This document shows positions 15,329 to 52,155 of a stretch of DNA of 64,000 bases, in pieces; the stretch's first letter is position 1; each line of letters starts with the position of its first letter. The notes under the pieces are model-generated. The model saw only the letters and a program-made list of their open reading frames with translations, did not search any database and was not told the DNA's origin. The DNA comes from an uncultured Candidatus Saccharibacteria bacterium (GTDB lineage: Bacteria > Patescibacteriota > Saccharimonadia > Saccharimonadales > UBA7683). Made by a program: the position numbers and the translations under genes. Where the stretch lies: positions 559,863-623,862 of the forward strand of contig CAZWBG010000001.1 in assembly GCA_964632215.1 (NCBI GenBank), written 5' to 3'.

Positions 15329-16756
15329 TTACAGAGATTGCTTTTTGAGATATTTCTGCCACTCAATGAGTCGATCTGTCTGTGACTTGTTGGGGTGCGC
15401 CATTGGCCTACACTGCTTAATATGTGTCAGTGCTTCGTCAACGCTCAATCCCTGGCTCACGAGATATGCGGCGGCCATAGTAGGGCCACGACCTTCCCCC
15501 TGACGACAATGAACATACACGCCTCCACCCTGGCTGATCTGCTGGTTAATAAAGCTCGTGCCTTCTTCAAGCGAATCAAGTGTCGGTGCCCGCCAGTCTG
15601 GAGTCTTCAGTTGCAACACCTCAACCCCCTCGAGCCTAGTAATATTCTTGCTACTTCTCATATTGACTACACCCGTAACACCCCACTGATTAAAGCGATC
15701 GGCTGCACTCTTCTTGTAGGTTCCACCGAGGTATAAGTGTGGAGCCACTTGACTGTATTTGGAGCTCGGTCTTCCAGAAAGTAAGTTCCTTAAACGCTCC
15801 TTCATGGCAATAAACTGTAGTTTTGTCAGAAGGTATGACTTATATGAGAAAGATGTGTGATTCTTCGTTATTGCTGGAACAATAACTCTGGTCTCAAACT
15901 GCCCACCAATAATGCGAGTGGGTAGAGACATATTTACGTCCCTATCATCCTTAAGAGTGTCGTCGGAAGCTTCATGAATTATTACCTCGCGACCACGATA
16001 TGTTTTTATGAGACCGCCAATATCTATACCTAAAATGCCCCTACCTAGAAACCAGATAACGAACTTAATAGGTGAAATGCTTTTTATTACTGCAACTTGC
16101 AAGACGCCAGAACGATGTGGTCGAGCGAACAGTCTCATTCCAAGGAAATTTTGGATTGCTCGGTTAGCTATGATCACCGTGTATCCCTTGGTTCGAATAT
16201 GCCTACCATTTATCTCAAATTTGTATTGATACCTCGTAGCCTGGGGTAAACTTTTGAGCATAGTAAGTCCATAAGCGAGTGCTCCGAACTTTTTCTTTAA
16301 CTTCGGAGGTGTAGCAAGCGTAGTCTGCGCCCACCAGCCATTGTAAATATCAAATGCAAGCTTACTGTCTTTGTTAAGTGATGCGATATCGTATAGTTGC
16401 GTACGATGATCACCCTTGATATACATTTGAAGGATCTTCTTAATATCACCAACCAAGCCAAGGTCTGTTGCGATCAAGTTTCCGGTTCCTCCAGGTAGGA
16501 TCAACAGCTTAACTTTAGTGTCTGCCAAAGTTTTTATAGCAGAGACAATCGACCCGTCACCCCCATAAACAGCAATGGTTTTAAATAATGAGGTGTTCTT
16601 CTGTATCAACTCCTGTGCCTGACTCGGATCTTTTACCTTCTTGCAGACATAACTTAACTTGCTCTTATCAAGAACCGTCTTCACTACAGGCTCCACATCT
16701 TTTTGTGAACCTGAGCTAGAGATAATGATGACAAGTATATCTTTGAGAGTAGACAT
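15329..16756 (-). CDS. Fusion of a diacylglycerol/lipid kinase catalytic domain with a dual-specificity (PTP-like) phosphatase domain
   Basis: N-terminal VYGGDGSIVSAI and LPGGTGNLIA match the DAGK_cat family. C-terminal VHCRQGEGRGPTMAAAYL carries the HCx5R P-loop. Confidence 0.75.
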   Translation of the reverse strand: MSTLKDILVIIISSSGSQKDVEPVVKTVLDKSKLSYVCKKVKDPSQAQELIQKNTSLFKTIAVYGGDGSIVSAIKTLADTKVKLLILPGGTGNLIATDLGLVGDIKKILQMYIKGDHRTQLYDIASLNKDSKLAFDIYNGWWAQTTLATPPKLKKKFGALAYGLTMLKSLPQATRYQYKFEINGRHIRTKGYTVIIANRAIQNFLGMRLFARPHRSGVLQVAVIKSISPIKFVIWFLGRGILGIDIGGLIKTYRGREVIIHEASDDTLKDDRDVNMSLPTRIIGGQFETRVIVPAITKNHTSFSYKSYLLTKLQFIAMKERLRNLLSGRPSSKYSQVAPHLYLGGTYKKSAADRFNQWGVTGVVNMRSSKNITRLEGVEVLQLKTPDWRAPTLDSLEEGTSFINQQISQGGGVYVHCRQGEGRGPTMAAAYLVSQGLSVDEALTHIKQCRPMAHPNKSQTDRLIEWQKYLKKQSL

Positions 16757-32882: not shown

Positions 32883-33605
32883 TTACTTTTTAGACTTTCG
32901 TTGCTTTGAGCCAACTTGCAAGAAATTCTTGACCGACTGACTATTGAAGAAGGTACTGTCGATGAGTATGAAGAGCAGGAGTAGAATAATAATCCAGTAT
33001 ATAAATTGTTCAACAAAAGTAATCGGTTGCGAGCCGTCAAAGTCAAAGCCCAGTAGAACACCAAAACGTATAACGGAATTTCGTTCTTCTTGAAGTGGAT
33101 TAGATTGGTCTTCTCTATCTGTAGATAAAAGATCTGTTTGAGGCGAGTCTGGATGAGTCACTGGATCCACATTTGGGCTCTTAACATACACCGAGACGGT
33201 TGGTGAGATAGGACCAGATTGGTCAAAACTATCAAAGTTTAGTGCTGTAAGACTATTCAGCCCCTCAAGGAGCCCAATATTAATCGTAAATGTACCCTGA
33301 GCAGAACAGGTACCCGTACCAGCTAGTGCACCAAAATTATATATCTCAACTCTCAGACCTACCTCGCAGGTTCCGGTTACAACCAGCGGCGTAGCCGTAA
33401 CCGTCTCTCCATTTAACGGCGAATCAATAATTGCAGGAATAGTGGGCGGCCCACCAGGCACTACAGCCGTAATAGTCACACTTCTGTTCTCCGTGAGAGT
33501 CAGAGCCTGTGCTGGGTAAGCGGATATACTCATGCAAGCCACTACTATGAACAAGGGTATCAGAATATCCCTAACGCGTTTGATGCCCCCCAGCACTCTT
33601 TGCAT
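32883..33605 (-). CDS. Surface protein with an Ig-like domain and a C-terminal TM anchor plus basic tail
   Basis: Signal peptide, then IIDSPLNGETVTATPLVVTGTC...GTCSAQGTFTI (bacterial Ig-like pattern), a C-terminal TM segment (FIYWIIILLLLFILI) and KQRKSKK. It starts 2 nt after the stop of the upstream gene. Confidence 0.55.
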   Translation of the reverse strand: MQRVLGGIKRVRDILIPLFIVVACMSISAYPAQALTLTENRSVTITAVVPGGPPTIPAIIDSPLNGETVTATPLVVTGTCEVGLRVEIYNFGALAGTGTCSAQGTFTINIGLLEGLNSLTALNFDSFDQSGPISPTVSVYVKSPNVDPVTHPDSPQTDLLSTDREDQSNPLQEERNSVIRFGVLLGFDFDGSQPITFVEQFIYWIIILLLLFILIDSTFFNSQSVKNFLQVGSKQRKSKK

Positions 33606-33607
33606 TT

Positions 33608-34618
33608 TTACCTTTGTCTAGTGTTATCGTTTTTAGACTGAGCTATAACTCGCTTCTTATATAGCTTGAGAATTCTTCGGACAATCCATACTGTTATAAG
33701 TAGCGCCACAAGGACTAGAATGATTAATTTGTATGGTATCACCCAAAACGTGGTTGAAGCGAGTAGAACACCTCCGGTTGTACCGTAGGCAATCTCAGCA
33801 GTTGCTGTATACCTACCAAGTAATCGTTGTTTACTCAGAACCTCTTCGAAACGTCGAGTACTGTTTGGTAGAACATTACCATCAGTTGCATTTATAGCCT
33901 CGGTCGCAATAGTCTTACCAAAAATGTCTTTTACGGTAATACTACCAGTCGGCTTCAGGTGTACATTACCAGTGTTTTCAATTCGCTGCACAAGACTGAG
34001 CGGGCCAGCCTCAAACAAATCACCTTTTTTGCCATTCTTCTGGGCAAAGAACTCTTGCATAACAAGCCGCTCTTGAATATCTCCGCCCACTCGAGTCAAT
34101 ATAAGTGTACCGACACTCGCAGAAATTGTAAGATTAGCTTTTTCCTTATCAGTAGGTGTACCCGTAAATCGAATAACTCCGTAGTATCCACCAGCTTCTG
34201 CATTCTGTGGCACATTAACCGTCGCGTTAACTACTCTGCTCTCTTTTGGTGCTAGAACCATGTCTCCAATAGGGTTAACCCACTGTCGGAACGAATAGCT
34301 GCTATCCCCACTAGTATCTTCTAGGATAACTTCAGGATTCCCCGTTTCATCCTTTGCCTGAAAGTCGTTGACTGATGCCTTAAGTAGTAGTTCTTGTGTC
34401 GTGACGTTTGTTACCGTTAAAACTAGGTTGTAGCTCTGCCCTTTTTCAGCATTTAAATCCACTAGTACTGGTGATATCTGTATACCCTGGGCTGCAGAAT
34501 CACTAGCTTGAGCTTGTACGCTAACTTGGTTGAGACTAGTAAATACGAGACAGGCGATGATGCTTACAAAGATAGCCCTACACATGTTCTTAATCGTGTT
34601 CATTCCTACTCTACTCAT
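33608..34618 (-). CDS. DUF916 + DUF3324-like (WxL-interacting, DufA/CscA-type) surface protein, copy 1
   Basis: Signal peptide; GIQISPVLVDL..GQSYNLVLTVTN; AEAGGYYGVIRF; a second domain with NTGNVHLKPTGSITV..VLPNSTRRFE..LLGRYTATAEI; and a C-terminal TM segment plus RRILKLYKKR tail. Confidence 0.65.
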   Translation of the reverse strand: MSRVGMNTIKNMCRAIFVSIIACLVFTSLNQVSVQAQASDSAAQGIQISPVLVDLNAEKGQSYNLVLTVTNVTTQELLLKASVNDFQAKDETGNPEVILEDTSGDSSYSFRQWVNPIGDMVLAPKESRVVNATVNVPQNAEAGGYYGVIRFTGTPTDKEKANLTISASVGTLILTRVGGDIQERLVMQEFFAQKNGKKGDLFEAGPLSLVQRIENTGNVHLKPTGSITVKDIFGKTIATEAINATDGNVLPNSTRRFEEVLSKQRLLGRYTATAEIAYGTTGGVLLASTTFWVIPYKLIILVLVALLITVWIVRRILKLYKKRVIAQSKNDNTRQR

Positions 34619-34652: not shown

Positions 34653-35678
34653 CTAGAATGTTGCTGTTGCAATATAAGTAAGGGTGGTGGAATAAGCACC
34701 AGCTTGCTGTGTAGCTGGAACGTTGGCAATATAACTAACCGTATAGGTATTGGCATTCGTAGCAGCGGCAGCTGAAGCCACTGTTTCACCTGTAACAAAT
34801 CGGAATGAGTTGGCAGTATTATAGTTTGCCGCAGGTAGACCACCGCCAGACCCTGAAACATTCGAGCCAATAGGCGGGGTTGTATTTGCCATGAGGTTCA
34901 TACCAAATTGTGCAGCACCCTGTGTTGACGCCGTATTAGTGCCAAGTGCAGCAATTGTATTAGCACCAGATGTTAGGGTTGAGCCATTTACGCTAATAGC
35001 ATAGCCGCTAGTTGCATTCGTGGAAGCCGACATCGTAGAGGTACCAGTACCGGTTGTGGCCGAAGAAAGTGCACCGAGTGGTACGGTCGCACTTGCCAGT
35101 GTAAAGGTCAGGGTTTCGTCTATCGTTGCAGTAATAGTAACTTGACCCGCTGTAGAAGAAGCAAAGGTTCCAGTATCAACAGCAGTTGTCCAGGTCGCGT
35201 CAGAATAAGTTGTCATTCGTGCAAAGAATGTAGCATTGGTAGCACTTGGGTTGGTCACGGCGCCGAAGGTTACGGTACTCGTGCCAGTTGGTGCTGCGAC
35301 GTTACCAGTTTTACTCAGGCGTAGGCTATCGGCAGTTGCGGTACTTACTGTCCAACCTGAAGAATCACCTAGGTTTGTAGGTTGCGTAGGTAGTGTTGAT
35401 GAGCTTGATGAAAAACCAGCAGGTGCCGTGCAGGTGCCCGTTGCAGTTGTACAAATTTGGAAAGATGCTGATTTGAGCACTGTAGAAGAAGGAAGTGCAA
35501 AACTAAATGTGTAGGTAGTTGAAGCCGAAGCAACCGAAGAACCAATTGTGAGTGTACGGCTAGTAGCTTGCAGTGCGGAAACCTGTCCCATACTTACGAT
35601 TACTGTGCTCAGGCCAACGACAAGCGCGCTAAATGTAAGACTGATTAATTTGATTTTTTGTTGTAATTTCTGTTTCAT
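34653..35678 (-). CDS. Thr/Ser/Ala-rich secreted protein, WxL-domain-like with Tyr in place of Trp (large)
   Basis: AGGAG RBS and a signal peptide. About 300 aa of T/S/A-rich beta-type sequence includes SGYAISVNGSTLTSG, and the C-terminus QQAGAYSTTLTYIATATF resembles the WxL C-terminal AG.Y...L.W.L signature. Confidence 0.5.
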   Translation of the reverse strand: MKQKLQQKIKLISLTFSALVVGLSTVIVSMGQVSALQATSRTLTIGSSVASASTTYTFSFALPSSTVLKSASFQICTTATGTCTAPAGFSSSSSTLPTQPTNLGDSSGWTVSTATADSLRLSKTGNVAAPTGTSTVTFGAVTNPSATNATFFARMTTYSDATWTTAVDTGTFASSTAGQVTITATIDETLTFTLASATVPLGALSSATTGTGTSTMSASTNATSGYAISVNGSTLTSGANTIAALGTNTASTQGAAQFGMNLMANTTPPIGSNVSGSGGGLPAANYNTANSFRFVTGETVASAAAATNANTYTVSYIANVPATQQAGAYSTTLTYIATATF

Positions 35679-35739
35679 AACTACTAATCTCCTGTTATCT
35701 ATATTTTAATCAGATTAGTTGTTACTATACATAAGTAGT

Positions 35740-36303
35740 ATGAAGTTTGTCAATCAATCGCTCCGAAAACTATTGAGTCTCTTTCTTGCAGGCCTCGCTC
35801 TTGTAGCTAGCGCCGTCATTCCGTTAGCACAAGCCTCACCTTATGGTATGGGAATATACAGCGCAAATGTCCCATACGGATCAGAAACGAGCATCGCGCT
35901 AAGCACTACAGGCAACGTCAACATGCAAGTTACGCCTACCGAGGCAGGTACTCTCGTGACAGCAACTAATACCGTAACAGTTACCTCAACTGATGTTGTG
36001 GGTTATAAGCTCTATATTAGCTCGCTTACCAGTAGTAATATGGTAAATGGACCCTCAACTATTTCGGCATCCTCCAATGTCACAGCAGCAGCCCTAGCCT
36101 CAAATACCTGGGGCTACAACACTGATGCCTCAAGTAATTTTATTGGTAGCACAACAACCGATACCCTTATTAAAACGGCGAACGGACCATACACTGCGGG
36201 CGATCCCACAACCGTAACATATGGACTGAACGTGAATCACGCCAAGGCTGCTGGCAAATATACCACAGCTATAGTTTATACGGCCGCTCCTCAAACGAAT
36301 TAG
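35740..36303 (+). CDS. Small secreted WxL-domain-like protein (Tyr variant)
   Basis: Signal peptide MKFVNQSLRKLLSLFLAGLALVASAVIPLAQA, then VTSTDVVGYKLYISS (like the WxL D.RG..GW.L block), and a C-terminus AAGKYTTAIVYTAAPQTN. I prefer the ATG at 35740 over the TTG at 35719. Confidence 0.5.
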   Translation: MKFVNQSLRKLLSLFLAGLALVASAVIPLAQASPYGMGIYSANVPYGSETSIALSTTGNVNMQVTPTEAGTLVTATNTVTVTSTDVVGYKLYISSLTSSNMVNGPSTISASSNVTAAALASNTWGYNTDASSNFIGSTTTDTLIKTANGPYTAGDPTTVTYGLNVNHAKAAGKYTTAIVYTAAPQTN

Positions 36304-36306
36304 CCC

Positions 36307-37191
36307 CTACTTACGTTTCTTATTTCGCTTTATTCTCAGTAACCGACTTACCGCGAGCACAACTATAATGATCAGGGATATGCCGAACCATGGTGGTATA
36401 TATATGAGTGTTCTTGTAAGATTTGTGGTACCACCCTGTGGCTTTGCATAGGTAGCCTGCACTCGATATATACTAGGCCACACAGAGTTGAGTGATAACT
36501 TGGTCTGCAATTGTCTCACACTACGAGGCAGTATCATAGCTTGTTGAATCTCAGACTTAGTTGCCCCAAAAAAGAGTGGTTTGTACTGTAGCTCTATCCG
36601 AGAATCTTGGTGGATATTACCAGTATTTGCAACTCGTGTTACTACGTCTACCTGTCGCCCAGCGCTCAACCAGGGCATATCAAGACTCAGTAGCTCGCCA
36701 CTACGCTGAACCTTGCCATTAACGGTTAGGTATATAAGTGATGCAACTCGTTTTACCTCTTGAAAGGCACCGTTAGAACTAGTATTAGTAGTAGATACAA
36801 AAAGTGCAATATAGTAGCCGCCCGGACTAGCATTTGTGGGTAAGGCGAGGCTATAACCTATGGTCTTTGCTTCTTGAGGCTGTAAGACAATGGTCGTATC
36901 GGTAAACCGGATCCAATTGGCACTCTCTTCAGCTTGAAATCTGTAGGTGTAAGCCTCATCAACTACGTCGAAATTCTCACTAGAAAGAGTTGTCGTAGCA
37001 ACCTCATTAGTGTTATTTGTAACAGTAACTGTGTTCATAGTTGTACTACCCGGATTTTGGGCAGTATAGGATCGCACTGGAGCCACCTGCAAGCCAGTGT
37101 CACGTGCTTGAGCGTGCAAACTCTCGGCAGTTCCTACGAACAACGCCGCCAATGTCAAGCCAGTAAGAACGATGATATACCGTCTTCTCAT
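36307..37191 (-). CDS. DUF916 + DUF3324-like (WxL-interacting) surface protein, copy 2
   Basis: Signal peptide; GLQVAPVRSY; ASPGGYYIALFV; ANTGNIHQDSRIEL..ILPRSVRQL..IYRVQATY; and a C-terminal TM segment plus RIKRNKKRK. The architecture matches 33608..34618. Confidence 0.6.
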   Translation of the reverse strand: MRRRYIIVLTGLTLAALFVGTAESLHAQARDTGLQVAPVRSYTAQNPGSTTMNTVTVTNNTNEVATTTLSSENFDVVDEAYTYRFQAEESANWIRFTDTTIVLQPQEAKTIGYSLALPTNASPGGYYIALFVSTTNTSSNGAFQEVKRVASLIYLTVNGKVQRSGELLSLDMPWLSAGRQVDVVTRVANTGNIHQDSRIELQYKPLFFGATKSEIQQAMILPRSVRQLQTKLSLNSVWPSIYRVQATYAKPQGGTTNLTRTLIYIPPWFGISLIIIVVLAVSRLLRIKRNKKRK

Positions 37192-37198
37192 GGAGCAA

Positions 37199-37915
37199 CT
37201 ACCAGACCCCGTAGTATGACCCGACCCAAGCTATAAGCTCGCCATACTTGGCGTTGACTATGAGATTCCCACTGTAGACACCCCAAAAGGCGATCCGACC
37301 ATCTAGATACACGTCGTTACTGAGAGACATACCAATTGTCACGTCGTATAATGCGCTGCCCACAGAGTTGCCGGAGGCATACGTGCTTCCATCTATCTGA
37401 AGTTCTCCACTAGCTGTACCGAGTTTTGCGGTTAAAATATGTAGCGACGTATCATTAGTATAATTAGAGAGCATCGGGGCGGATGGATTTGAAGAAGCAA
37501 AAAATTTATTATCGACCATACCAACCCCATTATAAGTTGAGGTACCGAAACCCATCAGGGCCTGTGTGGATGACACACTAGTCATACTACCAATAATCAC
37601 AAGAGTATAGTTCGCCGCTATATTAACTGGCGCTGAAAGTGTCATAGACTGATAGGAACTACTCGAAAACTCAACCATAGCCCTGTTGTTATAGCTCGTC
37701 ACACTACCCCTAAATATTGGGCTATCCGTGTAGGTGTACATATCGCCACCACCAGATGCGTTACGCCAACTGTCTACGGGGTTACCATTACCAGGATTTG
37801 TCCAAAGTGGATCATTAGCCCATCCGGCTGCTGCCCACGTTACCGCTGTAAGTGGATTAAAAGGGAGTGTTGCGCTTTTTGACGATGCATACACACCGTA
37901 GCTTATACCTCTCAT
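37199..37915 (-). CDS. LamG/concanavalin-A-like lectin-fold protein with no signal peptide
   Basis: The ATG at 37915 overlaps the fibre gene stop (ATGA). The pattern ...YTLVIIGSMTS...LMGFG...HILTAKLG..ELQIDG...LDGRIAFWGVYSGNL is typical of LamG-like jelly rolls. Confidence 0.5.
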   Translation of the reverse strand: MRGISYGVYASSKSATLPFNPLTAVTWAAAGWANDPLWTNPGNGNPVDSWRNASGGGDMYTYTDSPIFRGSVTSYNNRAMVEFSSSSYQSMTLSAPVNIAANYTLVIIGSMTSVSSTQALMGFGTSTYNGVGMVDNKFFASSNPSAPMLSNYTNDTSLHILTAKLGTASGELQIDGSTYASGNSVGSALYDVTIGMSLSNDVYLDGRIAFWGVYSGNLIVNAKYGELIAWVGSYYGVW

Positions 37916-40900
37916 ATCAATGCCCCAACCAGCACCCATTCATCAGTTCCCCGCTTATAGAGTGTTGCTCCTGCATACTGACCCGCAAGTTTCAACAAGC
38001 CACTGAGGCTTCGGATAGTCACACCGGCGGTTGCCGCTACAGTTGTAGCGCCAGCGCCCAACTGAGTAATATCAATGGTGGTACCGATCGGGAAGGCTAC
38101 CGAACTATTGAGTGGTATGGTGATTGTATTGGCGGCTACGTTATTCCGCTCAACCACCTTAGAGGCATCTGCAAGAACGAGCGTATATGTTGTACCAGTC
38201 TGGGTATTGATATTGGTAGGGCTTGTAATACCCCCACTGACGCTAAGTGTGCCATTAATTGTAGTATTACCATTTTTGAGTACGGTTAATGCATTAGCTG
38301 GACTACCAGAACTTGCTCCGTTTCCAAGCACAAATAACGGGTCAGTAGCCACCCAACTACCAGTAGTACCTGCAATGACATTATATCGACCGATCACTAG
38401 CGAAGCGTAGGCTTGAGCGGTTGTAGTGGAGCCCATAGCGGTACTGCTGCTACCTGAAGCGACTGTGGTGATACCCATAGCGGTACTAGCCCAGCCGGAG
38501 GCGGTTGTACTGGCACCCATAGCGGTACTGCTGCTACCTGAAGCGTTCGTGTCGGAACCCATAGCAGTGCTGGAGTCGGCGGAGGCGGTTGTGCCAGAAC
38601 CCATAGCGATATTGGCCCAGCCTGAAGCTGTTGTGCCAGAACCCATAGCGATACTGTCGTTACCAGATGCGGTTGTACTGGCACCTACGGCGGTACTGTT
38701 GTAGCCTACATTGACGTCATCCCACTCAGAGCCATAAACAGTCCCTACACGGAAAGCAGCTTTGTTAGTATCAAAGAACATTCTCGTGCCTGAGCCAGTG
38801 ACGGTAATGCCATTGCCGCCATCAAAAGTACCCGTGGAGAGAACACTTCCACCCGCTGTGTGGAGTTTGGCCGAAGGATTTGGCTCGCCTATACCGACAT
38901 TGCCATCGCCAAGAACCGTTAGCCGAGCCGTACCGTTCGTTATAACTGAAAGTGTGTTATTGGTTGTGAGTCCAAGTGTGCCATCGCCACTAAAGTTATT
39001 ACCACCGTTAGTGTAGGCAGTACCAGTAGTTAAAAGTGTGCCGTTTGTGGCAGGAAGCGTTAATGTATAGTTGGTAGAACCAGGATTATCGGGTTGCAGC
39101 TTAATACTTCCAGATCCACTGGCACTATAAAATGTTTGATTTCCAGTTAATGCTGACGCCCGGCCGATAAATGGCTGTCCGCTTGTACCAAAACCCGAGA
39201 GTATATTTGCACTTCCGTCCCGAAACTCCAGAGAGTTCGAGCCAGTACCAAGCACTACCCGCTCGTTTATAGTAGTTGACCAGCCGTAGTTTCCAAGTAG
39301 TATGTTGCCGCCCCAGCCACTTTTGGCAACCCCGACAACTCCTATATTCGAACCTGAGCCCGGATTTATAGTAACATCTCCACCAGTTGTACCATTACCA
39401 CCAGCTAGAGTAACTAGGCCGCCATAGGCGCTTGAAGCACTCTGCCCACCTTGTATAATAGTACTTCCCCCGGAGGCGTCGTCGCTGTATCCAGCTGTTA
39501 TAGTAATATCCGCGCCAGCGACGCCACTACTGCTAGACCCGCTCATTATGGAGACCGACCCACCAGAGCCACTACTACTGCTTCCAGCATATATGTCAAT
39601 ATAGCCACCATCACCATCACTACTATTATATCCACCCTCTATAGAGACATCACCTGCATCATTACTACCAGCGCTATCTCCGCCTCTTACGGTAGCACTT
39701 CCGCCATAGCCACTAGTACTCGATCCACCGCGTACGCGAGCGTCTCCACCGTCATTGTCACCACTCTCACCACCATATAGTCGTGCAGCCCCCCCAGTTC
39801 CACTGACACTTATTCCACCCTGTATCTCGACACCTCCTCCATCACCCGTAGTGGCGGATCCACCAGCCACGGTGACACCTCCTCCATCGCTATCAGCACT
39901 TGTTCCACCCGTCATAGTGGCTTCTCCACCAATACCACTAGTGCTATCTCCACCTTTTATATAAGTGCCAGCTCCGACGTGCCCTGTAGTACTATCAGTA
40001 TCACCAGCGCTTATATAGATATCGCCCGCTTGCGTATCCTGGCTATATCCACCATCTAGTCGGACTGAACCTCCCTGGCCACTACCAAAGCTAGATCCAC
40101 CTTTCACACGAGCATCTCCACTGGAACCATCTGTGCTCTGCCCTCCCTCCAGGTTAGCGGATCCAGCATTGCCACTATTACTACCTCCACCCGTTACCCA
40201 GACCATACCCCCGTTACCACTCGTACTTGTTCCAGCATAAATGTCAAGGTTCCCGCCCGAGCCCGTACCAGTATTCTCCCCGGCAAACACATCAAGATCG
40301 TAGCCAGACGTACTAGGGCTTGCGCCTATCAGACCATCAGCTTTATCGAACATGATATCGCCCGCTGCAGTAATGCGTCCTAACACCGTACTTGAACTCT
40401 GCCACTGCTGAAGATCAGCTGACTGGCTGGCGATACCCTTTAAGATGAGGGTGATATAATTAACACCTTGTGAAGTCATGAGTAGATGAGGGCTCGCGCC
40501 TGCTTGATACGTAAAACCAGCTGCGCCAGCCAATACACCAGCATTATTGTATTGCACCTGTCCTGTGGTACCACCCGGGGTAGCGACGTTTGCCGACCAA
40601 GCTGGTAGTCCACTACCGACCTTCAGGACGTCGCCAGTTGAGCCAACTGGTAAACGGGTAAGTGCGCCAGAAGAGTTTCGGTAATACATGTCACCCGTTG
40701 CACCACTACTGTCATCGTACATAGCAACCGTCCGACGAGCGGCACCAGTAGTGATAGTGAAGTACAACGTATCGGAGTTGAATTCCATGGCGCCCGCTTC
40801 GGCGGATGTCAGTAGCGTTCCAGAAGTAAACTTTAACGGTGCAGTACCAGCAGTGGCGGTACCAGGACGAATAGTAATTTTCTGGTGTCCGCCATTGACG

Positions 40901-41010
40901 GTGCTGTCGGCACCAGTGTTGTAATGCTCCTTCTCAATAAACTGATTGAGAATCTCACCCCATTCACCATCGTCACTATCTACGATTGGTAGTCTTTGCG
41001 GTACTGCCAT
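37912..41010 (-). CDS. 1032-aa fibre-like protein: tail-fibre-like N-terminus, Gly-rich 15-residue solenoid repeats, YadA-head (Hep_Hag)-like 14-residue repeats and a tail-fibre-tip-like C-terminus; no signal peptide
   Basis: Long ORF starting 2 nt after the stop of the upstream gene. Motifs include TGQVQYNNAGVLAGAAGFTY, GNVGIGEPNPSAKLHTAGG, repeated S.AMGS.TTASG and DPLFVLGNGASSGSPANALTVLKNGNTTINGTL. The N-terminus MAVPQRLPIVDSDDGEWGE is hydrophilic. Confidence 0.8.
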   Translation of the reverse strand: MAVPQRLPIVDSDDGEWGEILNQFIEKEHYNTGADSTVNGGHQKITIRPGTATAGTAPLKFTSGTLLTSAEAGAMEFNSDTLYFTITTGAARRTVAMYDDSSGATGDMYYRNSSGALTRLPVGSTGDVLKVGSGLPAWSANVATPGGTTGQVQYNNAGVLAGAAGFTYQAGASPHLLMTSQGVNYITLILKGIASQSADLQQWQSSSTVLGRITAAGDIMFDKADGLIGASPSTSGYDLDVFAGENTGTGSGGNLDIYAGTSTSGNGGMVWVTGGGSNSGNAGSANLEGGQSTDGSSGDARVKGGSSFGSGQGGSVRLDGGYSQDTQAGDIYISAGDTDSTTGHVGAGTYIKGGDSTSGIGGEATMTGGTSADSDGGGVTVAGGSATTGDGGGVEIQGGISVSGTGGAARLYGGESGDNDGGDARVRGGSSTSGYGGSATVRGGDSAGSNDAGDVSIEGGYNSSDGDGGYIDIYAGSSSSGSGGSVSIMSGSSSSGVAGADITITAGYSDDASGGSTIIQGGQSASSAYGGLVTLAGGNGTTGGDVTINPGSGSNIGVVGVAKSGWGGNILLGNYGWSTTINERVVLGTGSNSLEFRDGSANILSGFGTSGQPFIGRASALTGNQTFYSASGSGSIKLQPDNPGSTNYTLTLPATNGTLLTTGTAYTNGGNNFSGDGTLGLTTNNTLSVITNGTARLTVLGDGNVGIGEPNPSAKLHTAGGSVLSTGTFDGGNGITVTGSGTRMFFDTNKAAFRVGTVYGSEWDDVNVGYNSTAVGASTTASGNDSIAMGSGTTASGWANIAMGSGTTASADSSTAMGSDTNASGSSSTAMGASTTASGWASTAMGITTVASGSSSTAMGSTTTAQAYASLVIGRYNVIAGTTGSWVATDPLFVLGNGASSGSPANALTVLKNGNTTINGTLSVSGGITSPTNINTQTGTTYTLVLADASKVVERNNVAANTITIPLNSSVAFPIGTTIDITQLGAGATTVAATAGVTIRSLSGLLKLAGQYAGATLYKRGTDEWVLVGALI
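38380..38703 (-). repeat. About 8 tandem 42-nt (14-aa) repeats encoding (S/N)TAMG(S/A)xTTASGxx
   Basis: Read directly from the sequence: AVGASTTASGND SIAMGSGTTASGWA NIAMGSGTTASADS STAMGSDTNASGSS STAMGASTTASGWA STAMGITTVASGSS STAMGSTTTAQAYA. Confidence 0.85.
39355..40299 (-). repeat. About 20 tandem 15-16-residue Gly/Ser/Asp-rich units (x-S-x-S-G-x-G-G-x-a-x-a-x-G-G)
   Basis: Examples are SSFGSGQGGSVRLDGG, DSTSGIGGEATMTGG, TSADSDGGGVTVAGG, SATTGDGGGVEIQGG, ISVSGTGGAARLYGG, ESGDNDGGDARVRGG and SSTSGYGGSATVRGG. Confidence 0.85.
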
Positions 41011-41012
41011 TA

Positions 41013-41222
41013 CTAGCTACCGTATCTTCCGCCACCAAACTTTGACTTAGTTTTAGTGGACTCAGTTAATTTACGTGTTTCGGGATGAGATTGAAGCAAG
41101 AGCGAGATCATCTGGTTGATGCCAATGATTCCCAAAATTGCCACACCTAAGTGCCGCAAGAATTGCTTGCGGTCCATTGGTGTATCAAGTAACTTCTGTA
41201 GGTATTTATTGTCTAGTTTCAT
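41013..41222 (-). CDS. 69-aa protein with a twin-arginine-like (RK) signal or anchor
   Basis: MDRKQFLRHLGVAILGIIGINQMISLLL resembles a Tat signal (S/T-R-R-x-F-L-K followed by an h-region). The tail ends KSKFGGGRYGS. Its stop lies 2 nt before the fibre gene start, and an alternative start is at M16 (41177). Confidence 0.5.
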   Translation of the reverse strand: MKLDNKYLQKLLDTPMDRKQFLRHLGVAILGIIGINQMISLLLQSHPETRKLTESTKTKSKFGGGRYGS

Positions 41223-41308: not shown

Positions 41309-41548
41309 TTACTTTTTTTGTTCTACGCTACGCTCTTGCATCAGAGCATCTAGGTCGCTAGAACCGCGGACAACTGTGTCGCGAAGCTGTGTCACCGCTT
41401 GCTCTACACGTGCACTCACAATAACCTCACGAATATAGTTTTGAATCAATGCTTCAGCATTTTTGTAGCCAACATCCTGAGCGATACGCTCAAACTCTTT
41501 AGCAATTTTTGAATCTACTTTTACGGTAATGGATGTGTTTGTGCTCAT
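41309..41548 (-). CDS. Ribbon-helix-helix (CopG/Arc-like) DNA-binding protein
   Basis: 79 aa. TSITVKVDSKIAKEFERIAQDVGYKNAEALIQNYIREVI fits a strand-helix-helix pattern. The start overlaps the tatC stop by 1 nt (TAATG). Confidence 0.55.
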   Translation of the reverse strand: MSTNTSITVKVDSKIAKEFERIAQDVGYKNAEALIQNYIREVIVSARVEQAVTQLRDTVVRGSSDLDALMQERSVEQKK

Positions 41549-42551: not shown

Positions 42552-42737
42552 CTATTTACTTTTTTTAGCGACTTTTTCAGTCTTTTTGTCATCTTCGCCG
42601 ATGCCTTTTTTAACTTCTTTACCAAACTGTCCGATACTACGGCCGAGCTCTGGTAGGCGTGTTGCTCCAAAGAGAAGTAGTAACACCACTACAATCAGTA
42701 ACATTTCAGGTACACCGAGTCCAAATATCTCCATCAA
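42552..42737 (-). CDS. tatA: Twin-arginine translocase subunit TatA/E
   Basis: FGLGVPEMLLIVVVLLLLFGATRLPELGRSIGQFGKEVKKG is a canonical TatA sequence. GGAGG RBS upstream. Confidence 0.9.
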   Translation of the reverse strand: MMEIFGLGVPEMLLIVVVLLLLFGATRLPELGRSIGQFGKEVKKGIGEDDKKTEKVAKKSK

Positions 42738-45158: not shown

Positions 45159-45827
45159 ATGAGACGCAATCTCTTCAAGAAGAACCGCAGCAAGGTCGTA
45201 GGATCGCTGTTGGTGCTCGCTGCACTGTTCGGCGTATTGGCTGTAGGCACCACCGGTGCCTACTTCAGCGACACACATGACGGCAACATCACTGGCGAAC
45301 TCGGTTCGATCCGAATCACCCCGAGTGGGGGCTCGGGCATCGACTCGACGAACTTCAACTTCACCAACATGATGCCAGGGGAACCGCAGACAGCAACCCT
45401 CAACTACGAGAACACTGGGAGCAATCCGCAAGACGTTTGGGTAACATTCCCGAATGCCACGGCACTTTCAAGCCTGAACAACTTGGGGACCTACGGCGAG
45501 GTGCACATCCTCGGCAACGGTACCCCTCTGTTCGATTCCGCCAACCTCAACGATCGGTCCAGCACCTGTGGACCCTTCTCACCATCCGGATGCTGGCCAA
45601 TTCCCAACAAGATCCTGGTGGCGACCAACGTCGCCCCGGGAGGAACTGGTACGTTCCAGTTCACGTTCAACTACGCTTCCAAGCTGGCAATACAGCCGCC
45701 TGTCGGTGTAACTGGTTACTTCAACGAGTTCCCAGTTGTAGGCCAGCAGGTCATCAACGTGGCTGACGGAGTTGGCAACGGTCTCCCATACCGGCTGGTG
45801 GCCACTCAGGTGGGTCACCAGCCGTAA
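45159..45827 (+). CDS. TasA/camelysin-family (peptidase M73-like) secreted protein with a SipW-type signal peptide
   Basis: AGGAG RBS. The signal ends LAVGTTGAYFSD (the A-Y/F-F-S/N-D hallmark), followed by FTNMMPGEPQTATLNYENTGSNPQDVWV. The gene is visibly GC-richer than its flanks. Confidence 0.75.
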   Translation: MRRNLFKKNRSKVVGSLLVLAALFGVLAVGTTGAYFSDTHDGNITGELGSIRITPSGGSGIDSTNFNFTNMMPGEPQTATLNYENTGSNPQDVWVTFPNATALSSLNNLGTYGEVHILGNGTPLFDSANLNDRSSTCGPFSPSGCWPIPNKILVATNVAPGGTGTFQFTFNYASKLAIQPPVGVTGYFNEFPVVGQQVINVADGVGNGLPYRLVATQVGHQP

Positions 45828-45917: not shown

Positions 45918-46412
45918 ATGATCAAAAGAGTTGCTATTGGCTTCATGACAATCGTAGCTCTTACGATCGCCGCAAGCCTGCTGTATTTCTTTTTCGTATC
46001 ACCCTATAGGGTATACATCGTACATACTGGATCGATGGGTCAAACTATTCCCTCCAGAAGTGCGGTATTCGTTCAAGAAGGTGAATACAAAGTAGGGCAA
46101 GTTGTCACCTTTAAGATGCATGGCGAAGTGGTAACACACCGCCTTGTCAGCATTGGTAGTGATGGAAACATCACAACAAAGGGAGATGCGAACGCTAGTG
46201 AAGATACGACTCATCCACCAACGAGTGACATCATTGGTGGAGTCGTAAAAGCACCAAAGCACCTTGGTTGGATGATTGTATTTTTCAAACAGCCAAGTGC
46301 GTGGTTAATGTTCATTTCTGCAGGGCTCTGTATTTGGATGATCTGGTCTCCCTACGAGGAGCCCACGACCGAATCAGAATCTGAACCAGAGGCCGAACCT
46401 TTGAACGCATGA
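45918..46412 (+). CDS. sipW: Signal peptidase I, SipW (archaeal/ER) type
   Basis: TM segment followed by VHTGSMGQTIP (catalytic Ser box), VVTHRLV (His box) and TKGDANASED. Confidence 0.8.
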   Translation: MIKRVAIGFMTIVALTIAASLLYFFFVSPYRVYIVHTGSMGQTIPSRSAVFVQEGEYKVGQVVTFKMHGEVVTHRLVSIGSDGNITTKGDANASEDTTHPPTSDIIGGVVKAPKHLGWMIVFFKQPSAWLMFISAGLCIWMIWSPYEEPTTESESEPEAEPLNA

Positions 46413-49269: not shown

Positions 49270-52155
49270 CTAGTTCTTTACTATGATTTTTCTACGAATG
49301 ATTATAAGTGCCGAACCGCCACCGAAGAGTAAACCTGCTACCACTGCATGCAGAGACATAGACTGACCGGTATCAGCAAGATCCGTGGCGCCACCAGGTT
49401 GCACGGCCAATCCGCCAGACACCACGAGATTGTTAATAATCGCATTGGCGACCAGCGCGAAAGTTGAAAAGCTGCTTGTTTCGCAAGTAATGGTCTTGGC
49501 TGCTATATCAGTGGTACAGCTGTCCAGTTCGTTCCAATTGTTGGCATCATCGTAGTGGTAAATCATTAACGTTTCCGGGTCTATCCCCGTCAGATTAGTA
49601 CTAGGGTAATTGAATGTAATAGCAATGGGCTGCAAAAAATTATCAACAGTTGTCGAGGCGTCCGTAAGAGCTTCAATGTGATACATGTAGCCGCCAAGGA
49701 CTACCAGCGTGCCAGGCTTGCCAATAACTGCCCGCGCTTCACTGGCATCAATGCGCTTAATCTGGAACGTGGCATCGGTGGCTGCAAAACCGCTCGGAAT
49801 AGTTATCGTAATGTCGCCCAAACTCAACGAACCTCCGCTGGCAGTCGTAATAGCCTCTTCCATGTGAGCCATGACTGTTCCTGGACAACCATTTGTAGTA
49901 AAACCCCGGATTTCGCTAACAGCCTGCTGGCTGAATGCATCTTTAGAAAGTACCTGATAATAGTATCTTGTGCACATCTTCAGATTTGGTATCTGATAAG
50001 TATGGCTAGTGACCCGCGGGCCTGTGTTTTGTTCGGCATATATTCCATTAACCAACCCCGAAGTTAGACCGATTGCGATCTGGCTAGACGCTACTTCGTC
50101 GGTGGCCCAGGTAATTGTGGCTGATTCACCGTCGTCTGCCGACGTTGCCACAATGTTGCTAATTATTGGGACAGCAGTGTCGACAGCGTAGTTATTAGAA
50201 CTTGTGGTACCCGTACCGACGTTGCCGCTCAAATCAACCACACCAGTATTATCCAGTACAATGACATTAATTGAATTTGTTGCGCCGGTAGTTGGTGTCA
50301 GAGTCGCAGTCCAGGTTATACCACCGTCGGACGAACTGGGCGAGCTGAGACTGCCGTTTCCAACAACAAAATCAGAGACATCTAACCCTATCACCGCTTC
50401 GCTGAAAGTAATGGTAATAGTTGCGGTTTCACCCGTGACCAGGCTAGTGTCGCTCACTACAATACTTGCGGTGGGGCCTACGTTGTCAGCAGTAGCGACA
50501 GTCTCAATATTAAACGTATCGGTTACTGTCCCGCCGTTGCCGTCATCGGCGATCAGGTCGATTGAAATAGTGCCAACGTCGCCGCTAGCGGGAGTGCCGC
50601 TGAAAGTACGAGTGGCGGCATCGAAACTTAACCATGCTGGCAAAGCACTACCACCGGCAAGTTGCGCGGTATACGTGAGTGTATCGCCAACATCAATATC
50701 ATTAAAAGTATTGGCTGCAAACTGAAAGCTAAAGGCTACGTCTTCGGTGGCATTTTGATTGGGAATTGCGTTAGCAATAGTGGGGACGTCGTTAGTATTC
50801 GCGACAACAATATTGAACGTATCGGTTACCGTCCCGCCGTTGCCGTCATCAGCAATCACATCGATTGTCAGGGTGCCCACATCGCCGTTACTTGGCGTAC
50901 CGCTAAAAGTACGGGTTACTGGATCGAATGATAGCCACGTCGGAAGCGCACCCCCTCCTGCCCATTGGGCTGTGTAGGTAAGTGAATCTTCCAGGTCTGG
51001 ATCGTTAAATGTATTGGCTGCAAACTGGAAGTAGAATGCGGCGTCTTCTGTGCCATTTTGATTTGGGATAGGATTGGCAATAGTAGGTACGTCATTGGTG
51101 TTCGCGATAACAATATTAAATGTGTCAGTAACATCCCCGCCATTACCGTCGCTAGCAATAACATCAATCGATACCGTTCCAACATGTGCGTTCAGTGGCG
51201 TACCGCTAAATGTGCGAGTAGCAGCATCAAACTGTAACCACGCAGGTAGCATCCCACCTCCAGCGAGTTGCGCACTGTAAGTTAATGTTGTTCCGGCATC
51301 AACATCGTTAAAAGTATTGGCGGCAAACTGGAAATTAAATGTACTATCTTCGGTGGCATTTTGATTGGGAATTGCGTTGGCTATTGTAGGCGCGTCATTG
51401 ACATTGGCGATGATAATATCAAACGTATCCGTAGCAGTTCCGCCATTACCATCGTCAGCGATTAGGTCTACTGAAATTATACCAACATCACCATTAACGG
51501 GCGTGCCGCTGAAAGTACGAGTGGCGGCATCGAAGTTCAACCATACTGGTAAAGCACTACCACCAGATAGTTGTGCGAAGTATGTGAGTGTGCTTTCGGT
51601 ACTCTCAAACGTATTGGCTGCAAACTGAAAGCTAAAGGCTGCGTCTTCGGTGGCATTTTGATTTGGGATAGGATTGGCTACAATGGTAGTAAACGGAGCG
51701 CTGGCCTCATCGTACACAGTTATGTCGAAAAAGTCAGACACAGATAGGCCGCCATCGCTAGCTATTACTTCAACTGTAAAATTACCGACATCACCGTTAC
51801 TTGGAGTGCCGCTGAAAGTTCGTGTGGCAGAATCGAACGATAACCATCCCGGCAGAGGACTACCCCCTGATAGTTGAGCTGTGTATGTGATAGGAGCACC
51901 ATCTATATTTTGGAATGCGTTGACTCCAAACGAAAAATTAAAAGCTACGTTTTCGATTGCGCTTTGATCTGGAAGGGGGTTGACTATAACGGGCTGTGCG
52001 GCCCAGGCAGGTACGAAGTGCCCTAAAACAACCCCTGTCAGAATAATGAACACTGCGCTAAGCGATAAGAAAGTCTTAGCTTTTTTATTAAGCCAGAATG
52101 TCTTATTCTTCCATGATCGATTAGAAGTATGTGTAAAACTATTTTTCCAAAACAC
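49270..52155 (-). CDS. Cell-wall-anchored adhesin: five cadherin-like (dystroglycan-type/He_PIG) repeats, a Big-like domain, an FN3-like domain and an LAxTG sorting signal
   Basis: GTG start after GAGGAG, with a signal/TM segment. The repeat is PIPNQNATED.AF.FQFAANTF....TLTY.AQLAGG.ALPAWL.FDAATRTFSGTP.NGDVG...ID.IADDGNGG.VTDTFNI. The C-terminus is LADTG, a hydrophobic segment, then RRK. Confidence 0.85.
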   Translation of the reverse strand: MFWKNSFTHTSNRSWKNKTFWLNKKAKTFLSLSAVFIILTGVVLGHFVPAWAAQPVIVNPLPDQSAIENVAFNFSFGVNAFQNIDGAPITYTAQLSGGSPLPGWLSFDSATRTFSGTPSNGDVGNFTVEVIASDGGLSVSDFFDITVYDEASAPFTTIVANPIPNQNATEDAAFSFQFAANTFESTESTLTYFAQLSGGSALPVWLNFDAATRTFSGTPVNGDVGIISVDLIADDGNGGTATDTFDIIIANVNDAPTIANAIPNQNATEDSTFNFQFAANTFNDVDAGTTLTYSAQLAGGGMLPAWLQFDAATRTFSGTPLNAHVGTVSIDVIASDGNGGDVTDTFNIVIANTNDVPTIANPIPNQNGTEDAAFYFQFAANTFNDPDLEDSLTYTAQWAGGGALPTWLSFDPVTRTFSGTPSNGDVGTLTIDVIADDGNGGTVTDTFNIVVANTNDVPTIANAIPNQNATEDVAFSFQFAANTFNDIDVGDTLTYTAQLAGGSALPAWLSFDAATRTFSGTPASGDVGTISIDLIADDGNGGTVTDTFNIETVATADNVGPTASIVVSDTSLVTGETATITITFSEAVIGLDVSDFVVGNGSLSSPSSSDGGITWTATLTPTTGATNSINVIVLDNTGVVDLSGNVGTGTTSSNNYAVDTAVPIISNIVATSADDGESATITWATDEVASSQIAIGLTSGLVNGIYAEQNTGPRVTSHTYQIPNLKMCTRYYYQVLSKDAFSQQAVSEIRGFTTNGCPGTVMAHMEEAITTASGGSLSLGDITITIPSGFAATDATFQIKRIDASEARAVIGKPGTLVVLGGYMYHIEALTDASTTVDNFLQPIAITFNYPSTNLTGIDPETLMIYHYDDANNWNELDSCTTDIAAKTITCETSSFSTFALVANAIINNLVVSGGLAVQPGGATDLADTGQSMSLHAVVAGLLFGGGSALIIIRRKIIVKN
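50520..51993 (-). repeat. Five tandem ~300-nt repeats encoding the cadherin-like domains (divergent, not identical)
   Basis: Repeat units are readable in the translation. At the DNA level adjacent units align by eye at roughly three quarters identity (not computed). Confidence 0.8.

Follow-up and report, generated by a model that had tools for sequence, protein, structure and literature searches.

A stretch of 64,000 nucleotides (nt) from an uncultured Candidatus Saccharibacteria bacterium (contig CAZWBG010000001.1, positions 559,863 to 623,862), in the following called the window, was analysed around a gene for a large fibre-like protein of 1032 amino acids (aa). The window carries housekeeping genes of a member of the Saccharimonadia, which belong to the candidate phyla radiation (CPR), among them those for AspRS, GlmS, a Mur ligase, an L,D-transpeptidase and polysaccharide synthesis. 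The bacterium is monoderm. Read along the minus strand, the gene order around the fibre gene is tatA, tatC (twin-arginine translocation, Tat), a gene for a 79-aa ribbon-helix-helix (RHH)-like protein, a gene for a 69-aa miniprotein, the fibre gene itself, a gene for a 238-aa protein and a chaperone-like gene. There follow a small pilin gene on the opposite strand, a Pam pilin gene, a second chaperone-like gene and a PamR-like gene (Table 1). Phage genes, such as those for capsid, terminase, portal, tail tube or integrase, were not found anywhere in the 64-kb window; an initial annotation, made from the sequence alone, had reported that phage structural, terminase and integrase genes are missing nearby.

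The open reading frame (ORF) of the fibre starts with ATG and codes for a protein without cysteine. The start codon is credible because homologues share the same initial M-x-x-PQRLP. The fibre had initially been described as lacking a signal, and this holds: its N-terminus is hydrophilic, the homologous domain begins at residue 1-3 in nearly all relatives, and no N-terminal Sec signal peptide is present. Both gene junctions were read directly and are as first annotated. On the upstream side, the TAG stop codon of the miniprotein gene is followed by 2 nt and then by the ATG of the fibre; on the downstream side, the fibre stop codon and the start of the gene for the 238-aa protein form an ATGA overlap. 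Promoter and terminator scans gave results at chance level only. All five parts of the fibre that had been described in the initial annotation are present.

The first ~140 aa of the fibre represent a constant N-terminal domain (N-domain), with 60-78% identity across about 50 homologues whose remaining parts do not resemble the query. Its invariant residues include R6, L7, P8, D13, G15, W17, G18, K27, E28, H29, N39, G40, G41 and H42. A profile search with the N-domain yielded 217 representative proteins at E<=1e-30, which range from 104 to 2889 aa in length and nearly always begin with the domain at residue 1-3; in this family, no homologue with a signal peptide was found. The part unique to the family is limited to aa 1-43, while aa 44-118 recur as an internal module of other fibres. 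The N-domain was not found in the 50,697 phage records of INPHARED or in IMG/VR, a tblastn search of the phage records with aa 1-230 gave short module matches only, and Pfam did not match the N-domain at E<=10. An AlphaFold2 (AF2) model computed from a 23-sequence alignment is of low confidence (predicted local distance difference test, pLDDT, 58). It may be speculated that the invariance of D13, E28, H29 and N39-G40-G41-H42 reflects a metal site on a trimer axis, as such sites occur in some phage fibres.

Relatives of the N-domain occur at 222 places in a genome collection that was scanned with one genome per species. The locus analyses rest on the best 80 of these 222 places, all of which are from Saccharibacteria/Patescibacteria metagenome-assembled genomes (MAGs) and most of which have the same conserved synteny. 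For neighbourhood counts the denominators are 84 fetched loci (tblastn), 81 loci (hidden Markov model, HMM, of the miniprotein) and 77 loci (protein length). The closest relative of the window locus is L005, with 81% identity in the N-domain; its isolate name is HKST-UBA65, which we take to denote an activated-sludge MAG.

Downstream of the N-domain the homologues diverge and continue with SGNH hydrolase, beta-helix, LamG, Peptidase_S74 or other modules. SGNH/GDSL domains (PF13472, PF00657), Beta_helix (PF13229) and Peptidase_S74 C-termini occur in many of them. The most frequent version, found in 46 of the 77 loci, is a short form of 231-239 aa (usually ~233 aa) which consists of the N-domain and a tip of ~90 aa. 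As the usual member has only ~233 aa, the fibre from the window represents a long variant, whose anchor and tip are separated by ~790 aa of shaft and head.

The region that follows the N-domain contains modules known from annotated tail fibre proteins, as had been proposed from the sequence. Peptidase_S74-bearing "tail fiber" proteins (P0062) have internal segments to which aa 151-219 are 49-53% identical; the linker module (aa 141-235) as such has no Pfam match. Further downstream, the GNVGIGEPNPSAKLH region (aa 700-760) aligns with thousands of "tail fiber" proteins, and aa ~675-930 gave more than 2,900 matches to tail fiber domain-containing proteins at 40-57% identity. The mid shaft has no Pfam match at E<=10, and a Peptidase_S74 or other intramolecular-chaperone domain, for which a check had been suggested, was not detected in the fibre by Pfam.

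Between these modules lies a Gly-rich array, for which the initial annotation had given the range 39355..40299 (aa 238-552), about 20 units and a pattern consistent with a narrow beta-solenoid. Our parse confirms the unit number, with 20 units of 14-18 aa, mostly 15-16 aa, that follow the pattern a-x-a-x-G-G-x-S-x-S-G-x-G-G-x. The beta-solenoid is weakly supported; it is suggested by the periodicity and by a low-confidence AF2 single-sequence model of aa 236-760 (pLDDT 45.5), which has one short strand per unit. The array has no relatives in Pfam, among PDB sequences or among the retrieved homologues.

A YadA-like head is confirmed. At aa 772-869 there are seven clear 14-aa S-T-A-M-G units, while the eighth of the units initially counted is degenerate; Tandem Repeats Finder reports a 42-nt period with 6.7 copies. 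Pfam YadA_head (PF05658) matches with E 4e-9 (37 bits, cut-off 25). Matches in the PDB (7o23, 3s6l, 9gh4 and 9u93) include the heads of BpaC (7o23, E 2e-11), Hep_Hag (3s6l) and Fusobacterium CbpF, and the alignments continue through the neck-like stretch DPLFVLGNG...NALTVLKNGN. The repeats and the neck-like stretch imply a trimeric left-handed beta-roll adhesion head, as far as can be predicted from the sequence. The C-terminus does not carry a YadA-type beta-barrel anchor, but ends with a phage-type tip.

This tip had also been predicted initially, and the prediction is borne out by its similarities. The tip matches PHROG 8780 "minor tail protein" (E 3e-17) as well as PHROGs 21978 and 21510 (E~1e-17), and aa 942-1031 share 53% identity (E 3e-23) with the C-terminal 90 aa of gp39 from Gordonia phage Kewpiedoll, whose gene is the last of the minor tail genes ahead of lysin A. 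A match to Pfam was not obtained at E<=10. In total, 222 phage records were matched by the tip, of which 196 are from Gordonia phages and 3 from Mycobacterium phages, the latter being the larger set of sequenced phages. Since the tip is common to Gordonia phages, the host of the bacterium is plausibly a Gordonia-like actinobacterium. Candidatus Mycosynbacter amalyticus, the model organism for the Pam pilus, is a Gordonia parasite (Troman et al., bioRxiv 10.64898/2026.03.03.709456, a preprint). The tip of the short form has 52% identity to the C-terminus of the tail-spike protein (gp24) of Gordonia phage Turuncu and also matches mostly actinophages. Comparison of the two tip types by hhalign gave E 0.009 with low probability, and thus we treat them as alike in architecture, with homology unproven. 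The tip type of the window fibre occurs also in L006, where the fibre gene is again followed by a homologue of the 238-aa protein (40% identity).

The only visible clue to how the signal-less fibre leaves the cell is the miniprotein encoded directly upstream. In 63 of the 81 loci, a miniprotein of 64-72 aa is encoded directly upstream of the fibre gene and on the same strand, in most cases with a gap of a few nt. The consensus is ..LLxKxM[TSD]R[RK][EQ]FL, followed by a Gly-containing hydrophobic helix of ~20 aa, a variable region of 15-25 aa and a GFGxxK[FY]G end; R18, F21 and G34 are invariant in the alignment. In the window, the motif is MDRKQFL, and a single hydrophobic helix is followed by the C-terminal tail FGGGRYGS. 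The 239 miniprotein clusters found in databases are all standalone CPR proteins of 60-88 aa which are never fused to a mature domain. We also considered that miniprotein and fibre might be expressed as one gene by frameshift or readthrough. This was rejected because the intergenic distance varies across species, from an overlap of a few nt to more than 300 nt, so that the frames differ, and because the miniprotein is always a standalone ORF.

No other family in these loci has a motif that resembles the Tat consensus. All of ten tested miniproteins match NF038009 ("twin-arginine translocation system-associated protein") over their full length with 26-49 bits (38.8 bits for the one from the window; cut-off 100), and two of the ten are at the threshold of the Tat-signal model TIGR01409 (17.2 and 16.5 bits, cut-off 16.7). 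TatC is encoded within 10 kb in 29 of the 84 loci (tblastn) and is an immediate neighbour, on either strand, in about 16. This is far above the expectation for a random gene in a genome of ~1 Mb, though the species are related. A second paralogue of the miniprotein, with an RK/RR-FL motif and a GYG..YGG tail, is found beside or close to tatC and not beside the fibre gene (L010, L015, L039, L066, L069, L057, L068); the copy in L039 is 848 nt upstream of the start of the fibre gene. It should be mentioned that in M. amalyticus cells a hypothetical protein of 7.9 kDa, QHN43237.1, ranks eighth by abundance (Supplementary Table 1 of Troman et al.); by its size it would fit the miniprotein family.

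The other genes of the cluster point to the Pam pilus, a donor-strand-exchange pilus which was described in 2026 in M. amalyticus (Troman et al.). A gene with the Pam pilin C-domain is located 2.2 kb downstream of the fibre gene; its product also reaches 115 bits with the PamT model, which is below the cut-off. The architecture of the two chaperone candidates of 294 aa and 336 aa fits that reported for PamC and PamD, membrane-anchored PapD-like chaperones with a signal peptide and a C-terminal transmembrane (TM) helix (Troman et al.), but neither candidate is matched by an HMM. Neighbours were counted in two ways, by searching the loci with the window proteins (tblastn) and by clustering all locus genes. 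A chaperone-like neighbour is found in 65-67 of the 84 loci (67 for the clustered family, fam0), the small pilin in 60 by tblastn and in 50 by clustering, nearly always on the opposite strand, and a PamR-like protein in 47 by tblastn and in 55 by clustering. In minimal loci such as L043 and L062 the layout is that of the window, but the short form replaces the long fibre: tatC/tatA, miniprotein, a 234-aa protein, chaperone, small pilin, pilin, chaperone and PamR.

Table 1 Features of the fibre locus and of its surroundings. Positions are those of the 64-kb window; TM, transmembrane.
Feature	Position	Strand	Evidence or remark
Fibre gene, 1032 aa	37912..41010	-	ORF reading
Fibre N-domain, aa 1-140	40591..41010	-	CPR-specific; proposed anchor and trimerisation module
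Part of the N-domain with the putative metal-site residues, aa 1-45	40876..41010	-	speculative; residue invariance
Tail-fibre-like linker module, aa 141-235 (TGQVQYNNAGVLAGAAGFTY...)	40306..40590	-	homology to S74-bearing fibres
Gly/Ser-rich array, aa 255-545, 20 units	39376..40248	-	repeat parse
Shaft modules including GNVGIGEPNPSAKLH, aa 546-760	38731..39375	-	from about aa 675 onward common with tail fiber domain-containing proteins
YadA-like head and neck-like stretch, aa 763-929	38224..38724	-	Pfam, PDB, Tandem Repeats Finder
Phage-type C-terminal tip, aa 942-1031	37918..38187	-	PHROG and phage protein identity
69-aa miniprotein	41013..41222	-	twin-arginine-like motif, hydrophobic helix, family HMM
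tatA, 61 aa, TTG start (MMEIFGLGVPEMLLIVVVLLLLFG...)	42552..42737	-	PF02416 TatA_B_E on the identical gene in L001/L002
tatC, 316 aa	41548..42498	-	Pfam TatC E 8e-44; TIGR00945 133.8 bits, cut-off 132.7
79-aa RHH-like protein	41309..41548	-	weak NikR N-terminal match, E 1e-4
238-aa signal-less protein (246 aa if start at 37939)	37199..37915	-	ATGA overlap with fibre stop codon
294-aa PamD/PamC-like chaperone candidate	36307..37191	-	signal peptide and C-terminal TM helix
194-aa small secreted pilin-like protein	35719..36303	+	signal peptide
341-aa Pam pilin	34653..35678	-	NF058581 CPR_Pam_pilin_C 170 bits, cut-off 55
336-aa second chaperone candidate	33608..34618	-	signal peptide and C-terminal TM helix
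240-aa PamR-like tether candidate	32883..33605	-	C-terminal TM helix; NF058578 PamR 108.8 bits, cut-off 300
222-aa protein	45159..45827	+	N-terminus MRRNLF...GTTGAYFSDT
164-aa archaeal/SipW-type signal peptidase I	45918..46412	+	TIGR02228 50.6 bits, cut-off 51.85
961-aa protein	49270..52155	-	He_PIG, Big_12 and Big_9 Ig-like repeats; tandem-95 repeat model below cut-off
475-aa fusion protein	15329..16756	-	diacylglycerol/NAD-kinase-like and dual-specificity phosphatase domains

Two small genes flank the pair of miniprotein and fibre. The gene for the RHH-like protein is located between tatC and the miniprotein gene, and its start overlaps the tatC stop codon; homologues occur in 7 of the 84 loci by tblastn (including L003, L006, L009, L011 and L039). 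As an orphan MazE-like antitoxin has been reported near the pam operon of M. amalyticus (Troman et al.), this might be the same gene. On the other side, the 238-aa protein had been labelled LamG-like, but this label is without any HMM or PDB support, with no match in Pfam, NCBIfam, PHROGs or the PDB. Nor does the protein resemble the product encoded directly after the homologous tail protein of phage Kewpiedoll. It is possible that it is a partner of the fibre.

Many loci (among them L014, L022, L030, L035 and L040) have, at +700 to +4600 from the N-domain gene and ahead of the chaperone gene, a conserved run of signal-less genes which is not found in the window. It includes a 450-530-aa protein with GGNNITLSQ repeats (36 loci), a variable gene for a receptor-binding protein (RBP)-like product, of which one type is LamG-like, a 241-aa GT-A-like protein (32 loci) and a 202-aa methyltransferase-like protein (34 loci), all types being assigned by eye. 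The N-terminal motif of another of the RBP-like types looks to us, again by eye, typical of phage tail fibres. An extra density on PamA Ser356 has been modelled as galactose (Troman et al.), and thus the GT-A-like and methyltransferase-like enzymes may modify pilins or fibres.

Outside of the cluster, several genes of the window deserve mention. The N-terminus of the 222-aa protein resembles a SipW-dependent signal of the TasA/camelysin type, and together with the adjacent signal peptidase it may belong to a second fibre system, of the TasA type and ~4 kb away from tatA and tatC. The 961-aa protein with Ig-like repeats may, judged by its domains, be another large surface protein. The phosphatase domain of the 475-aa fusion protein is of a kind seen in polymorphic toxin systems.

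A "tail fibre-like protein" encoded beside pam operons of CPR bacteria has already been described by Troman et al., and very probably this is the gene family of our fibre. The setting is the same, with Pam pilins, chaperones and PamR as neighbours in Saccharimonadia. The parts of the preprint used here report co-localisation only and have no passage on function, domain analysis, Tat or the miniprotein.

The fibre differs from each of the better known systems that it resembles. The actinophage minor tail and tail-spike proteins (Kewpiedoll gp39, Turuncu gp24) share a homologous tip of ~90 aa at 52-53% identity, which in gp39 is found at the extreme end of the last minor tail protein. However, upstream of the tip the proteins differ throughout, the anchor at the N-terminus was not found in phages, and the phage genes are part of a virion module whereas the fibre gene is part of a cellular pilus cluster. 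The trimeric autotransporters (YadA, BpaC, Hep_Hag) have in common with the fibre the 14-residue head repeats and the neck-like stretch. In contrast to these type Vc adhesins, the fibre has neither a Sec signal nor a C-terminal beta-barrel translocator. The tail fiber domain-containing proteins which resemble the fibre at aa ~675-930 are from Bacteroidota, Bdellovibrionota and others. Most of the best matches carry Peptidase_S74, while PF13884 is absent from the fibre, and they lack the CPR N-domain.

For the export of a signal-less protein together with a Tat substrate there are "hitchhiker" precedents in E. coli (HybO/HybC, DmsA/DmsB and PaoABC; PMC4273604). The arrangement is alike in that the gene of a signal-less protein lies beside that of a partner with a twin-arginine-like motif and near tatAC, and the window codes for both TatA and TatC. 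The partners of the known hitchhikers, however, are full-size enzyme subunits, while here they have only 64-72 aa, scarcely more than a signal peptide and a short tail. Also, the known cargos are globular redox enzymes, whereas here the cargo would be a fibre.

On balance, we lean slightly towards the explanation that a Saccharimonadia epibiont here encodes a receptor-binding fibre of its own, derived from phages, which belongs to a Pam host-contact cluster and is exported with the help of the miniprotein and the Tat system. That it is a cellular, domesticated protein and not a prophage remnant had been proposed in the initial annotation and is well supported by the CPR-only N-domain, which was not found in the phage collections, by the mostly conserved synteny and by the housekeeping nature of the window. 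We infer from the modules and from the genomic context that the fibre is exposed at the surface and acts as an adhesin, and it probably helps the epibiont to recognise its host bacterium. Judged by its module types, the fibre would fold and probably trimerise in the cytoplasm, as phage fibres do. The constant N-domain may then bind the co-translated 69-aa miniprotein, as suggested by the gene pairing, and the folded complex would be exported by TatA/TatC, encoded just upstream, in the manner of a hitchhiker. Export by Tat is suggested because the cytoplasm is where trimeric fibres of the phage type fold, and because no other translocase for folded proteins is visible in the locus. The helix of the miniprotein, if left uncleaved, could tether the fibre at the membrane among the Pam pili, and head and tip, perhaps together with the 238-aa protein, would bind to the envelope of the host bacterium. 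The distal modules are variable between lineages, and their shuffling may retarget the host range, as it does in phages.

A more specific version, which we put forward with hesitation and consider rather doubtful, is that the miniprotein acts in trans both as a Tat signal peptide and as a membrane anchor, and would be a dedicated escort for pre-folded signal-less fibres. Perhaps such an escort also serves other signal-less RBP-like proteins of the cassette.

Several observations weigh against Tat export with the miniprotein and against the assignment of the host. The matches to NF038009 are far below the cut-off, and many miniproteins have RK and not RR. About two thirds of the loci do not have TatC within 10 kb. 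As the paralogue adjacent to tatC is without an adjacent fibre gene, the miniprotein family may be a general Tat accessory. A trimer would have 3 x 105 kDa and some relatives reach 2,800 aa, which exceeds the mass of any Tat cargo documented to our knowledge. The cluster also codes for signal-less cytoplasmic enzymes (glycosyltransferase-like and methyltransferase-like), so that a missing signal alone is no proof of unusual export. As to the host, the best single match of the tip is from a Variovorax phage, and the tip module is thus not exclusive to actinophages; the bias towards Gordonia is partly due to the sampling of the phage databases.

The fibre may alternatively be an accessory of the Pam pilus itself, with the N-domain docked on a pilus subunit such as the tip pilin PamT or the small opposite-strand pilin. 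A phage-type receptor-binding head would then sit on the pilus, and the miniprotein would be unrelated to docking. Export by Tat is compatible with this, and the difference to the explanation given above concerns only the final location of the fibre. Chaperone-usher pili are known to bear specialised tip adhesins, and in most loci the fibre gene is located between pam genes. In the pamA neighbourhood network of Troman et al., moreover, the tail fibre-like protein is central. However, cryo-electron microscopy of M. amalyticus filaments resolved PamA and PamB only, and the named Pam components all have a Sec signal, an Ig-like pilin fold and donor strands (Troman et al.), while the fibre lacks a signal and has no pilin-domain match in Pfam or NCBIfam. 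In addition, some paralogues with the N-domain are encoded outside of pam clusters (L016, L018, L055, L080). We regard a pilus accessory as improbable.

Even less probable, in our opinion, is a family of polymorphic effectors or depolymerases, in which the N-domain is a trafficking domain for a route other than Tat and the C-termini degrade or remodel the host envelope. Polymorphic toxin systems likewise combine a constant N-terminus with variable C-termini, and the many homologues which end in SGNH/GDSL, Beta_helix or Peptidase_S74 would fit. The fibre from the window, however, lacks an enzymatic domain and has binding-type modules only, the commonest form of 233 aa has the N-domain and the tip but no enzyme, and type VII secretion, type VI secretion or contact-dependent inhibition (CDI)-type machinery was not found among the window genes scanned. 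Finally, the gene might be a remnant of a decaying prophage or tailocin, or might supply fibres to a phage encoded elsewhere, with no role in the biology of the cell itself. Shaft, head and tip modules are indeed all of the phage tail-fibre type, and phage fibres are likewise signal-less. But the reading frame is intact, its N-terminal anchor is not known from the phage collections, the synteny with pilus genes is conserved across dozens of species, and the 64 kb are free of the phage genes searched for. This possibility is strongly disfavoured, and we consider it very improbable.

While it was already known that a tail fibre-like gene occurs beside pam operons (Troman et al.), four aspects appear to be new. 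These are the definition of the family by its constant N-domain, with short and long forms, the pairing of the fibre with a Tat-motif miniprotein, the link to tatAC, and the fibre tips that are common to phages of the likely hosts. In kind, the fibre would be a cellular adhesin that resembles a phage RBP, and such adhesins are known; that it reveals a new mechanism of export and display is possible, if somewhat unlikely.

The attachment of Saccharibacteria and other CPR bacteria to their hosts has been linked to type IV pili and, recently, to Pam pili, and we know of no host-specificity determinant of these epibionts. The fibre locus is a concrete candidate for such a determinant, having a constant anchor and swappable phage-type tips in a pilus cluster. 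The homology of the tips to those of phages of Gordonia and other Actinobacteria suggests that hosts of uncultured Saccharibacteria may be predicted from the sequence, and points to an exchange of modules between epibionts and the phages which share their hosts. The pairing with the miniprotein provides a testable hypothesis for how a pre-folded, signal-less fibre may reach the surface of a monoderm cell. If this is true, the escort would be a previously undescribed way to display adhesins, and Saccharibacteria would have a plug-and-play cassette for host range, with tips borrowed from the phages of their hosts.

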